Notes: generated by a model not told the origin, from the letters alone. 64,000 bases of DNA from an uncultured Gammaproteobacteria bacterium (GCA_964633905.1 CAZWIT010000002.1:63209-127208), one strand, 5' to 3'; shown: positions 2,906 to 62,094, counted from the first letter of the stretch. Translations and numbers: made by a program.

Positions 2906-5252
<2,347 letters not shown>

Positions 5253-56593: not shown

Positions 56594-57223
56594 ATGCTTT
56601 TTACTGCTTTAGGAACCAATTCTTTAGCTTTTGTGGCTATGATCATGGCCTTAGTTTATGCAATCACTATTCATGAATTTAGTCATGCTTTAGTTGCTAC
56701 TTGGCAGGGTGATCCCACGGCTCGTTATCAGGGGCGATTAAGTTTAAATCCTTTGGCACATTTGGATTTACTAGGCAGTATTATGTTGCTACTAGCTGGT
56801 TTTGGTTGGGGCAAGCCAGTGCCAGTAAATCCTTATAATATGCGTTGGCAGCGCTGGGGGGAAGCGGCGGTTTCCATAGCTGGGCCAGTTAGTAATTTTA
56901 TTAGCGTTATTTTATTTATTTTAATTTTAAAATTAACTAGCCCTTATTTATTACCGACTAATTTATTATCAATTTTTCTGATCTCTTTAATCTTAACCAA
57001 TTTAATTTTAGGTGTTTTTAATCTTATTCCTTTGCCGCCGCTTGATGGCTCTAAAATATTATTTGCGGCTTTGCCAGCTGGTTTTGAGAAATTAAAACAA
57101 CAGTTAACAATTAATGGCCCCTGGATACTGTTGGCTTTAATTATGATTGATAATTTTTCGACAATTAATATTTTTGGTAAAATTTTTGAATTTTTTATTA
57201 ATTTTATTTCTAGATTTTTATAG
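56594..57223 (+). CDS. site-2-protease family (M50) membrane zinc metalloprotease
   Basis: HEFSHALVA (HExxH in TM) and NLIPLPPLDG motif. Confidence 0.75.
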   Translation: MLFTALGTNSLAFVAMIMALVYAITIHEFSHALVATWQGDPTARYQGRLSLNPLAHLDLLGSIMLLLAGFGWGKPVPVNPYNMRWQRWGEAAVSIAGPVSNFISVILFILILKLTSPYLLPTNLLSIFLISLILTNLILGVFNLIPLPPLDGSKILFAALPAGFEKLKQQLTINGPWILLALIMIDNFSTINIFGKIFEFFINFISRFL

Positions 57224-57240
57224 CTATAATTGTTTTTATA

Positions 57241-57269
57241 TTGACAATATTGTTTATTTATAGTATTGT
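57241..57269 (+). promoter_or_regulatory. sigma70-like promoter TTGACA-17-TATTGT
   Basis: Read directly, ~60 nt upstream of the small GC-rich gene. Confidence 0.45.
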
Positions 57270-57327
57270 TCAAATCCGTTCTTTTTTCCCCTGTCAATAT
57301 AAACATTGTCTCAAGGAGGAGGGTTAG

Positions 57328-57525
57328 ATGAAGGCTTTGCTAAAAAGGGCCGGCATTTTGCTGGCTGCGAAGCGCGAAGAAATCGGGCGTAAGCGTCGTA
57401 TCAGAGAATTGCGGCAAGAGAGTGAACTTATTTTCCAGGAAGCTATGGGTAGAGTTATCTGCCAAAAGCCTAATGGCGGTACGCTTGCCAAAGAAGCGGC
57501 TGACGACGAAGTCTATTCTGTCTAG
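57328..57525 (+). CDS. small basic protein (65 aa) in a GC-rich (~48%) island, strong SD AAGGAGGAG
   Basis: ORF with canonical RBS spacing, own promoter and own terminator; composition atypical for this genome. Confidence 0.55.
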   Translation: MKALLKRAGILLAAKREEIGRKRRIRELRQESELIFQEAMGRVICQKPNGGTLAKEAADDEVYSV

Positions 57526-57532
57526 CTAATAT

Positions 57533-57571
57533 TACCCAATCCTGCTACTAGCAGGTGAGGGTATTTTTTTA
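57533..57571 (+). terminator. Rho-independent terminator (TACCC aat CCTGC tacta GCAGG tga GGGTA + T7)
   Basis: Hairpin plus TTTTTTT. Confidence 0.75.
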
Positions 57572-57587
57572 TTGCCTAATTTAGGCC

Positions 57588-57616
57588 TTGACAAGTTTTA
57601 ATATTTTTGTTAGAGT
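57588..57616 (+). promoter_or_regulatory. sigma70-like promoter TTGACA-17-TAGAGT driving the GC-rich RNA element
   Basis: Read directly. Confidence 0.45.
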
Positions 57617-57639
57617 GCTTTTTGTCTATATTTTCGTAC

Positions 57640-57905
57640 CTCCAATATTAATGGAAAAACGGAGACAAGCGCCCTGTCATGTTGGTTATGAAAACGTATT
57701 GGCCACCGCGGGGCCTGCGTTTTTGGTCGGTGTGCATCACCTGGCCTAACCCAATTGGGTAGTTCTCCGTTTAGAGGAGATTGAGATAGCGCGCCTGCAA
57801 AACAGGTGAGCCTCGCGTCCGATGGGAACTACGCCCACGATAGTCGCGAGCCGCAGTCTCGCTCCTCGAGGGGTTCGTGCTCGTCCGCGGACCCCTTTTT
57901 TATTT
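57640..57905 (+). ncRNA. GC-rich (~58%) highly structured RNA element (~270 nt) ending in an intrinsic terminator, upstream of rpsL; class unknown (ncRNA or attenuating leader)
   Basis: Multiple helices (CGGAGA...TCTCCG long-range; GCGAG ccgcagt CTCGC; ACCCAATTGGGT; terminator GGGGTTCG...CGCGGACCCC + T6). Confidence 0.45.
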
Positions 57906-58009
57906 GTTTGGGCTTGACTTAGCTTTTTTTTTGTGCTATTTTATTGAAGCATTTTATAGCCCCTCGGGGCGATAATTATTTTTATAAAAACAATTTATTT
58001 TGAATTTTA

Positions 58010-58438
58010 ATGCCTACAATTCACCAATTATTGAAAAAACCAAGACACACTCCTAAAGCTAAGAGTAAATCTCCAGCTTTAACTTCAGTTTTAAATACTT
58101 TACGTCGTTCCAAAAGAGATTTGCCCAAAGGCAGTCCCTTTAAACGGGGAGTTTGTGTAAAAGTAACTACTACTACTCCTAAAAAACCAAACTCAGCTTT
58201 GCGTAAGATTGCCAGAGTTCGTCTTTCAAATGGTATGGAAGTTACTGCTTATATTCCTGGCGAAGGTCATAATCTACAAGAACATAGCATTGTAATGATT
58301 AGAGGTGGCAGGGTAAAAGATTTACCTGGTGTGCGTTATCATATTGTTAGAGGTGTCTATGATACTCAAGGTGTATCTGGTCGTAAACAAGGCCGTTCTC
58401 TTTACGGTGCTAAAAAAGAAAAAGCAGCTAAAAAATAA
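58010..58438 (+). CDS. rpsL: 30S ribosomal protein S12
   Basis: [12 protein letters not shown] ... highly conserved. Confidence 0.97.
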
Positions 58439-61146: not shown

Positions 61147-61199
61147 TATAACAATTTTGGGTTAACAAAAAACCCCATTTATGTAATAGAGTTTTTTGT

Positions 61200-61760
61200 T
61201 CATCTGAAGCCACTAGATCTTAATAGCTAGAGAGCTATAACCTAGTGGACTCGGATAAAGGGGAGAAACTGTTGGCTGGCGGCGGGTCGCGTTGAACGCG
61301 ACCCGCCGCACTGATGCGTTATTCGGATGCTTCTCCCTTTGACTATTTTTACCTGTAGTCAGCAGGATTCCGTTGCCCCGGAATGACGGGAGTTGTTTGT
61401 GAGGATTACCGGATATTATGCGGCCTCCGGAGAGTCGCGGGAACTACCCGACTACTGGGCCTATGGTTCGAACAGTCCAAACATCACGATCCTTTCTGCT
61501 GCACCCTCTTGCAGCAAATGGGTCCTGAAGTACAGGAGTGGTTGCGACCTTATATGGTTTCCGGGTATTATCGGCCCCCGGTGGATCTGGTCGCACGCAG
61601 TTCTTGGGCGGGCGCTGCGCGGTCGTATTTAACCGCGAGCAAAATTGTGCCGATGACTGCGTTTTTTAGACCACTGGCCTAGAGCAACAGTCGAATCACT
61701 ACAATCTCCCTTCTTTTCGGTTTAGCGGAGCGCATGAGCGCTCCCGTTTTGTTTTTTTAC
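61200..61760 (+). ncRNA. GC-rich (~57%) noncoding island inserted between fusA and tuf; candidate large structured ncRNA of unknown class, ending in intrinsic terminator (GGAGCGC atga GCGCTCC + T-run)
   Basis: 13-bp GC stem GCGGCGGGTCGCG ttgaa CGCGACCCGCCGC; GGGGAGAAAC...GCTTCTCCC helix; CCACTAG...CTAGTGG helix; no convincing ORF. Confidence 0.4.
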
Positions 61761-62094
61761 CAAACTGTATCACAGGTTTTGTGGATGACAGTCTGGCAAC
61801 TGCGGGTGTTTAGCCATCTTAGAGCATTCAACCCGCCTTTAAAGGCTAGTGTTTTACAAACACTGTAATGGAGGTAAGGATATAAGCTGATGCTTATATC
61901 AGGTGGTAAACTCGAAATTATCAAGCCGTAAAGCCTGATAAAATCAGGGTTGTAGGACCTGTTCTTAGTCCTCCAATACAGTATTTGTAAAAAAGCCTTT
62001 ATTTATTGGTTTTTTAAGAGCAATAGAGCATTATATCATATAATTAATATTTTGTCAATAGTATTGTAGCCATAAATAAATTTAAAATATTAAT

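Follow-up and report, generated by a model that had tools for sequence, protein, structure and literature searches.

A structured RNA upstream of rpsL and its candidate partnership with a fast-evolving mini-protein gene in a Patescibacteria sub-clade

Here we characterize a GC-rich structured RNA encoded directly upstream of rpsL in a stretch of 64,000 nucleotides (nt) deposited under an uncultured Gammaproteobacteria bacterium (GCA_964633905.1 CAZWIT010000002.1:63209-127208; the whole stretch is termed the window, and positions are counted from its first letter). Close protein relatives of the window, found in an S12-based search, carry the label 'Patescibacteria group bacterium'. We put at about even the chance that the element is a stand-alone small RNA (sRNA) gene of ~280 nt, organized in two domains and forming the second half of a cassette whose first half is an open reading frame (ORF) for a mini-protein of 65 amino acids (aa). 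For a trans-acting RNA that binds this mini-protein as its cognate partner, by forming a ribonucleoprotein (RNP) or by sequestration, the chance falls somewhat short of that. More tentative still is the proposal of a new, fast-diversifying class of cognate mini-protein and structured RNA confined to a Patescibacteria sub-clade, in which the RNA would directly bind and control an Arg-rich helical protein of 39-65 aa. The locus is laid out as follows:

56594-57223: M50 site-2 protease gene (stop codon 57221-57223)
57241-57269, plus strand: small-ORF promoter TTGACA-17-TATTGT, right behind the M50 stop (promoter scan)
57280-57323, plus strand: small-ORF 5' untranslated region (UTR), with a pyrimidine run TCTTTTTTCCCC (57280-57291) predicted to pair with the strong Shine-Dalgarno (SD) sequence AAGGAGGAGGG (57313-57323)
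57328-57525, plus strand: gene for the 65-aa Arg-rich protein (helix at residues 2-43, CQKPNGG motif, acidic tail DDEVYSV)
57533-57570, plus strand: small-ORF intrinsic terminator TACCC..CCTGCTA/TAGCAGG..GGGTA with T7 (inverted repeat I1)
57588-57616, plus strand: sRNA promoter TTGACA-17-TAGAGT with extended -10 TG (promoter scan)
57622-57903, plus strand: structured sRNA, type A, ~280 nt; 5' end placed from the -10 box, 3' end from the terminator T-run
57657-57772, plus strand: sRNA 5' domain, closing helix AAACGGAGA/UCUCCGUUU
57774-57867, plus strand: sRNA 3' domain, closing helices GAGGAG/CUCCUC and UGAGAU/GUCUCG
57868-57901, plus strand: sRNA intrinsic terminator, a 12-bp stem (57868-57897) whose 3' end overlaps T6 (57896-57901)
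57914-57942 and 57959-57970, plus strand: rpsL promoter TTGACT-17-TATTTT and 5' UTR hairpin GCCCCTCGGGGC, forming the boundary and lying outside the element
58010-58438: rpsL, followed by rpsG and fusA

Structure and conservation of the RNA

A preliminary description of this region, made from the window alone, had proposed a GC-rich segment of ~270 nt with its own promoter and terminator, and these elements proved sound. The segment spans ~280 nt and has a GC content of 0.53-0.64 across 57650-57900, compared with a window mean of 0.354 (sd 0.063 in 120-nt windows) in an AT-rich genome; it is the biggest GC island of the 64 kb except for one at 61.2-61.7 kb. The promoter consists of TTGACA (57588-57593), a 17-nt spacer and TAGAGT (57611-57616) preceded by TG, with 10 of 12 positions matching consensus. 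Related loci, which carry labels beginning with L, were retrieved via S12, via the 65-aa ORF and via M50. Across the window, L093, L100, L195, L196, L198 and L081 the -35 TTGACA is invariant at a 17-nt spacing, and the -10 box reads TAGAAT in L093 and L100, TAGACT in L195, TATAAT in L196, TATTTT in L198 and TATCTT in L081. The terminator hairpin with its T6 was likewise recovered; its stem sequence is replaced in L093, L100, L195 and L191, with pairing preserved through compensation. Judged by these conserved signals the RNA is an independent transcription unit, in agreement with the stand-alone non-coding RNA that had been entertained as one of two options, its promoter and terminator being kept in every carrier as the body diverges and its helices are compensated.

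The plus strand of 57622-57904 folds with a minimum free energy (MFE) of -109.1 kcal/mol (z = -3.95; 1 of 200 shuffles equally stable), compared with z = -2.1 for the minus strand, and the many G-U pairs in the fold are consistent with the plus strand. The RNAs of L100 and L195 reach z-scores of -4.0 and -5.45. Pairwise identities among the RNA bodies of the window, L093 and L100 are only 85%, 71% and 66%, and 62-74% for the terminators, in genomes whose S12 is 99% and whose M50 is ~94-95% identical. RNAalifold, applied to an unfitted MAFFT alignment of three sequences, returned 85 pairs arranged in two domains and the terminator, 8 of them compensatory and very few broken. In a six-sequence alignment, a small sample fitted to covariance model R1, 96.2% of cells were standard pairs and 25 of the 85 pairs had changed on both sides; neither value was reached in any of 500 shuffles, and sliding the partner by 1-3 columns as a control left 40-50% paired with 1-4 compensatory pairs. 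Covariance model R1 matches the 334-nt RNA of L195 at E = 1e-12, where an independent MFE fold gives the same two-domain layout, and a 5'-truncated copy in L191 at E = 9e-6. On the evidence of this covariation, the secondary structure is conserved. The RNA contains no conserved ORF, only ORFs of 30-53 aa without an SD (the ATG at 57651 is ATA in L093), and no tandem repeats were found in it.

Several helices of the 5' domain correspond to those described earlier, with adjustments. The pairing of CGGAGA (57660-57665) with TCTCCG (57764-57769) stands as the covarying helix that closes the domain, with a span of ~110 nt in place of the ~90 nt first given; the full closing helix, AAACGGAGA/UCUCCGUUU in the window, becomes GUGGAGA/UCUCCGC in L093 and CGUGGAGCA/UGCUCCACG in L195. 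Within it lie a helix GAAAACG/CGUUUUU of invariant sequence (57689-57725), a hairpin GGUCGG/CCUGGCC that covaries (57725-57746) and a CCC/GGG segment. The palindrome ACCCAATTGGGT (57749-57760) is present, but the consensus instead pairs its GGG with an upstream GCGCCC. In the 3' domain the hairpin GCGCCUG-CAAAA-CAGGUGAGC, reported earlier in its DNA form as GCGCCTG-CAAAA-CAGGTGAGC (57789-57811), is real and covarying. It is accompanied by a helix CUCGCG/CGCGAG that bears the hairpin UGGG-AACUACG-CCCA and a conserved CGAUAG; the proposed complementarity of GCGAG (57846-57850) and CTCGC (57858-57862) exists in the sequence, but these bases are engaged otherwise in the consensus, CUCGCG with CGCGAG. 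In L195 the closing GAGGAG/CUCCUC is exchanged for AGGGGGUG/CACUUCCU, and in L195 and L191 the UGGG-AACUACG-CCCA hairpin becomes GGAG-GCUAGUA-CUCC between conserved flanks, CUCGCG.CCG and CGAUAG; the 3' domain of both keeps the same layout with its first hairpin enlarged.

The preliminary description had assigned the RNA to no family, and our searches agree: Rfam 15 gave 0 hits at the gathering score across the whole 64-kb window and 7 related loci, and at E <= 10 the segment 57450-58050 yielded only chance-level, terminator-driven matches. ARAGORN identified it as neither tRNA nor tmRNA. A metagenome scan with the 17-mer GGGAACTACGCCCACGA returned 55 loci, all of them chance by nhmmer; this 17-mer was later seen to be a variable hairpin and was thus a poor choice of query. 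A viral scan with a 15-mer gave only chance matches by nhmmer, and the rpsL loci of 80 GTDB species contained no homologue of the RNA by nhmmer or covariance model R1. Four further candidates, namely the template repeat of a diversity-generating retroelement, a retron, CreTA and ColE1 Rom/RNA I, were weighed and dropped, the required partner gene or features being lacking.

The mini-protein gene and the distribution of the cassette

The preliminary description overlooked that the RNA and the 65-aa ORF at 57328-57525 together make up a two-gene cassette. Following M50, the cassette runs in the order of a TTGACA-type promoter, AAGGAGG, a GC-rich ORF of 39-65 aa, a terminator, TTGACA-17-TAnnnT, the GC-rich RNA and a second terminator. 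It is carried by seven lineages, represented by the window, L093 (7 contigs), L100, L195, L196 (with a duplicate contig, L197), L198 and L081, and among these carriers the RNA, of 186-536 nt, is always found with the small ORF and in the same order. An eighth locus, L191, is truncated on the 5' side, leaving only the RNA's 3' domain in view. As a unit the cassette is absent from L082-L092.

Three types of RNA can be distinguished. Type A is found in the window, L093, L100, L195 and L191; type B, of ~187 nt, in L081 and L198, whose copies are mutually alignable and have a covarying terminator; and type C in L196, with 536 nt, -228 kcal/mol and an internal 35-nt repeat. Neither the covariance model nor BLAST links the three, which occur as unalignable types among genomes with 94-99% identical S12. 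The type of protein tracks the type of RNA, A with A, B with B and C with C. Searches for terminal repeats or target-site duplications around the cassette gave only AT-rich matches judged to be chance, and BLAST against phages and plasmids together with a viral protein scan detected no relative of it. The cassette is inherited vertically in one Patescibacteria sub-clade and evolves much faster than its neighbours.

The 65-aa ORF is real and under purifying selection. Substitutions relative to L093 number 7, 5 and 17 at the first, second and third codon positions, and no lineage has lost the ribosome-binding site (RBS) or the reading frame. A word-index search recovered three homologues and a full HMMER search added only P0244, further hits being discarded as low-complexity, PASTA-like NPNGG repeats; thus only four detectable homologues exist among 5.8 billion clustered proteins and 1.84 billion cluster representatives. 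Identities to P0122, P0123 and P0244 (the L195 protein) are 85%, 74% and 52%, whereas M50 of these genomes reaches about 95%, about 94% and 84%, so that the mini-protein evolves faster. The GC content at third codon positions (GC3) of the ORF is 0.50 in the window, compared with 0.17-0.27 in host genes, and 0.50-0.64 across lineages, compared with 0.17-0.40. AlphaFold2 predicts a single long Arg/Lys-rich amphipathic helix (residues 2-43; predicted local distance difference test scores of 83-96 over residues 1-40), followed by a disordered acidic tail with a hydrophobic end. The mini-proteins have no match in Pfam, PHROGs or PADLOC. The ORFs of L196, L198 and L081 share with it the basic helix, one invariant Pro and the acidic-hydrophobic C-terminus at 26-29% identity in the alignment, and their homology to the type A protein is plausible, mainly on the grounds of position.

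The signals of the small ORF are conserved in a similar manner. Its -35 and -10 hexamers are retained in L093 and L100, a TTGACA or TTGACG promoter stands behind M50 in L195, L196, L198 and L081, and its terminator is invariant in L093 and L100 with an equivalent hairpin and T-run in the other four. ViennaRNA predicts that the SD is paired in each of the 7 lineages, every time with a different upstream pyrimidine stretch and through G-U rich pairing. The fold of the whole ORF mRNA has modest z-scores of -3.1 to +0.5, on which account we rejected the idea of a highly structured, toxin-like mRNA. Flanking the small-ORF promoter is a perfect inverted repeat of 12 nt, TTTATATTGACA (57235-57246) and TGTCAATATAAA (57292-57303); it is kept in L093, has one base changed per arm in L100 and has a counterpart in L195 (TGACGGTTT / AAACCGTTCA). 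This repeat may represent an operator or a hairpin within an M50 read-through transcript.

Other small units occupy the same intergenic site. In L198 a third small unit lies behind the type B RNA (3200-3372), with TTGACA-N17-TATAAT, ~110 nt and a terminator GGGGATTACGCATCCCC with T9, a candidate for a further sRNA in the same intergenic array. The distant relative L001 (Magasanikbacteria) keeps the M50-to-rpsL synteny, and its gap (640-830) is occupied by a short promoter of another kind, ~110 nt of RNA and a terminator, with a GC-rich 77-aa membrane ORF on the opposite strand. The M50-rpsL intergenic site appears to gather small transcription units across Patescibacteria.

Partnership of RNA and mini-protein and its alternatives

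The suggestion that the two genes are partners has a circumstantial basis in their co-occurrence, the joint switching of protein and RNA types, the long Arg/Lys-rich helix and the predicted sequestration of the SD in all lineages. Under such a partnership the sRNA would be produced from a dedicated near-consensus sigma-70 promoter and stop at a dedicated intrinsic terminator, and translation of the mini-protein would probably be kept low by the predicted SD-sequestering hairpin of its 5' UTR. The basic helix of the mini-protein would bind the RNA as an RNP; alternatively, the RNA would sequester and neutralise the mini-protein in the manner of a sponge or an RNA antitoxin.

A number of points weigh against this interpretation. 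Both the transcription of the RNA and its binding by the protein are deduced indirectly, and with separate promoters and terminators the two genes could act independently. Searches found no known RNA-binding domain in the mini-protein. The alignment that yields the strongest covariation is a fitted one, and there are only 5-6 distinct type A sequences. Homology of the type B and C proteins would have to be accepted at 26-29% identity together with synteny, and as the type B and C RNAs have no detectable similarity to type A, treating all three as one family would be a purely positional argument.

The possibility that the two genes are unrelated neighbours, the sRNA being an ordinary trans-acting regulator of mRNA or protein targets elsewhere in the genome, is in our view unlikely. 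It would explain why each gene has a promoter and a terminator of its own, and the unpaired stretches that are conserved in the sRNA (UUAGAGGAG, CGAUAG and the hairpin loops) are possible seeds. It is opposed by 7 lineages in which the two genes strictly occur together, in one order and with types that vary jointly, and by the absence of both from the sister clade. Large multi-helix RNAs of 186-536 nt would also be unusual for seed-pairing sRNAs, and complementarity to the start regions of neighbouring genes is not outstanding. With the rpsL start region the RNA forms a duplex of -16.2 kcal/mol, short of the average of -22.9 for 62 start regions taken across the window, and pairing of the sRNA to neighbouring-gene start regions was rejected as not significant over these 62.

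Somewhat less probable is a type I-like toxin-antitoxin (TA) locus, in which the mini-protein would be a toxin, its mRNA silenced at the level of translation, and the sRNA would serve as the antitoxin by base-pairing with this mRNA. Features that would suit such a locus are the SD sequestration predicted for the 5' UTR of the small ORF in all lineages, an adjacent RNA with a strong promoter, a patchy distribution, fast evolution and the atypical GC3 of 0.50-0.64, as well as a 9-nt match in L081 between the 5' end of the RNA (GCUCCUUCC) and the RBS of the ORF (GGAAGGAGC). However, this match is not conserved in L198, and in four lineages the best predicted pairing of the sRNA to the ORF mRNA's 5' region did not surpass that of shuffled RNA (fractions 0.10-0.50). 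The genes are moreover co-directional and non-overlapping, the protein is charged (Arg, Lys, Glu) and amphipathic and is no membrane peptide, and the locus has neither a PADLOC hit nor phage or plasmid relatives.

Two further explanations are very improbable. The first, that a highly divergent housekeeping RNA (6S, RNase P, signal recognition particle (SRP) RNA or tmRNA) was missed by the Rfam models in Patescibacteria, would fit a GC-rich RNA in an AT-rich genome, as with rRNA and tRNA, having a strong promoter and terminator and a structure conserved as its sequence diverges. It is opposed by the absence of Rfam hits even at E <= 10 and of a tmRNA by ARAGORN, and by eye we recognised no 6S rod-with-bubble, RNase P P4/CR-I or SRP domain IV motif; nor would one expect such an RNA to vary over 186-536 nt, to fall into three unalignable types in close relatives and to be missing at the locus in a sister clade. 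The second explanation, that these are the remains of an inserted mobile element, decaying and no longer functional, draws on the presence or absence of the cassette at one intergenic site, its foreign-looking GC content, and the other inserts that this site and the rpsG-fusA spacer take up in relatives (mini-inserts, GIY-YIG, 23S_rRNA_IVP). Decay is difficult to reconcile with helices preserved by compensatory changes, conserved promoters and terminators, and an ORF under purifying selection and intact with its RBS in 7 lineages, and we found no terminal repeats beyond AT-rich chance matches and no homologues in phage, plasmid and viral collections.

Least credible is the other option of the preliminary description, a cis-acting leader, attenuator, riboswitch or ribosomal-protein autoregulatory element of the str operon, for which the RNA's position upstream of rpsL in the window and a terminator that could in principle attenuate read-through might be cited. 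The second promoter and the GCCCCTCGGGGC hairpin noted earlier ahead of rpsL were both found and are conserved, and since this promoter lies downstream of the terminator, the RNA is not co-transcribed with rpsL. The sister genomes L082-L091 (S12 92% identical) keep the M50-to-rpsL synteny with a spacer of only 149 nt that contains the rpsL promoter and hairpin alone, which means that rpsL has no need of the GC-rich RNA. The RNA of L195 is followed by a protease-like gene, and that of L198 is separated from rpsL by the third small transcription unit and an oppositely oriented gene of 224 aa; together with the sister spacers, these interposed genes tie the RNA to the small ORF rather than to the str operon. 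A riboswitch was rejected for want of an Rfam class match and of any ORF between the terminator and the next promoter, and with a downstream gene that varies among carriers. A str-operon leader was rejected on account of the separate rpsL promoter, which also serves rpsL where the RNA is absent, and of a position inconsistent among carriers, as such leaders are expected consistently upstream of ribosomal-protein genes (PMC7247131). No Rfam leader matched, and no antiterminator stood out on reading the sequence, no computational search for one having been made. Absence in relatives, which the preliminary description would have counted against the element, is confined to the sister clade; in the window's own clade the RNA is present and covaries. 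An Rfam hit, the other ground that description gave for refutation, did not turn up.

The rpsL promoter (CTTGACTT-N17-TATTTT) and the hairpin ~15 nt into the 5' UTR occur in all relatives (L081-L092, L191, L193, L194, L196). The hairpin covaries, reading GCCCCTCGGGGC in the window, AAGCAGCAATGCTT in L082, AGCTCCAGGGGCT in L081 and GCCTTTTGGGGC in L194, and also AAGCCCTATTGGGCTT, and could be a genuine leader element of the str operon, either mRNA-stabilising or protein-binding. Unrelated inserts of 80-113 nt are present at the site of the cassette in L084 and L087 (same S12) and in L092 (S12 91% identical). They contain a small GC-rich hairpin, e.g. CCTCCTTCGTTTCGCTGAGGCGAAAC (L084 953-1181, L087 2534-2794, L092 2739-3000). 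In L087 and L092 the insert is flanked by a duplicated AAATYCTTGAC that takes in the -35 box of the rpsL promoter, and looks like an insertion resembling a miniature inverted-repeat transposable element or a promoter duplication.

The rpsG-fusA spacer is also a variable slot in relatives (L081 3943-4674, L083 3964-4254, L084, L085, L088), occupied by a functionally unassigned ORF of 243 aa, a 96-aa GIY-YIG endonuclease or a 117-aa protein resembling 23S_rRNA_IVP/Avd, none of which is found in the window. Five 'S12' hits of 198-231 aa (P0001-P0003, P0011, P0029) are tandem chimeras of two different S12 proteins and represent assembly artefacts of short ENA contigs rather than lengthened genes. 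Elsewhere in the window, a second GC-rich (0.57-0.60), ORF-poor stretch of ~870 nt (61150-62022) lies between fusA and a 114-aa ORF with tuf. A perfect TTGACA-17-TATAAT promoter with TG (62058-62030, minus strand) points into it, and its minus strand folds at -335 kcal/mol (z = -14.9), compared with z = -8.5 for the plus strand. The stretch has no Rfam hit, and a comparison with the RNA at 57.6 kb found no similarity. Probably it encodes a large structured RNA of no assigned class, possibly a more remarkable one than that at 57.6 kb.

Implications and comparison with known systems

To our knowledge, Patescibacteria have tiny genomes with few known regulators, and hardly any non-coding RNAs have been described in them outside the housekeeping set. 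A strongly promoted sRNA of conserved structure that is locked to a fast-evolving mini-protein would contribute new families of both RNA and small protein. If the two bind one another, the cassette would provide a compact model of RNA-protein co-evolution, or a new type of toxin-antitoxin or defence system, in an uncultured lineage; and if the proposed class is true, it would constitute an RNA-protein addiction, defence or symbiosis module outside the catalogued TA and RNP families. The narrow distribution of the cassette tempers this weight. One false lead has been removed, the element being neither a riboswitch nor an S12/S7 autoregulatory leader, and covariance model R1 and a clear contrast of presence and absence are now on hand.

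Ribosomal-protein leaders share with the element its position directly upstream of rpsL in the window and the sequence of a structured RNA followed by a terminator, and are distinguished from it by the points given above: the RNA is not co-transcribed with rpsL, is absent in sisters, is separated from rpsL in L195 and L198, and matches no Rfam leader. Short Arg-rich helices that recognise RNA are known from lambda N-boxB, P22 N and HIV Rev-RRE, and the present locus may resemble these in placing such a helix beside an RNA with small stable hairpins of 5-7 nt loops (e.g. CCUG-CAAAA-CAGG). However, L195 and L191 do not keep the loop sequence, the surroundings are not those of a phage, and the cassette RNA is a free terminated transcript and not a nut site within an operon.

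The type I loci tisB/istR-1, shoB/ohsC and zorO/orzO likewise combine a separately transcribed sRNA with a nearby small ORF whose RBS is occluded in its own 5' UTR, as is predicted for the cassette, and are lineage-specific and fast-evolving. They differ from the cassette, in which sRNA and mRNA have no significant complementarity and the genes are co-directional rather than divergent. The cassette protein is highly charged and not a hydrophobic membrane peptide, and the RNA is far larger (186-536 nt) and multi-domain.

Closer in overall organization are the type III TA pair ToxI/ToxN and the CsrB/RsmZ-CsrA systems, in which a small protein gene is co-inherited with an adjacent, independently terminated structured RNA; the likeness extends to patchy distribution, fast evolution and protein and RNA types that change together. 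In contrast to type III systems, where the RNA lies upstream of the toxin, the cassette RNA is downstream of the ORF and without tandem repeats, and compared with the ToxN/AbiQ endoribonuclease the mini-protein is a single helix of 39-65 aa with no Pfam or PADLOC match. With respect to the CsrA/CsrB sponge, the mini-protein is predicted to be all-helical and has no CsrA Pfam hit, and GGA loops do not occur in the RNA as a regular array. The cassette fits no known family of RNA or protein; as a kind, a small-protein gene beside a stand-alone structured sRNA, it resembles toxin-antitoxin and sponge-type systems, although it is without their defining features.

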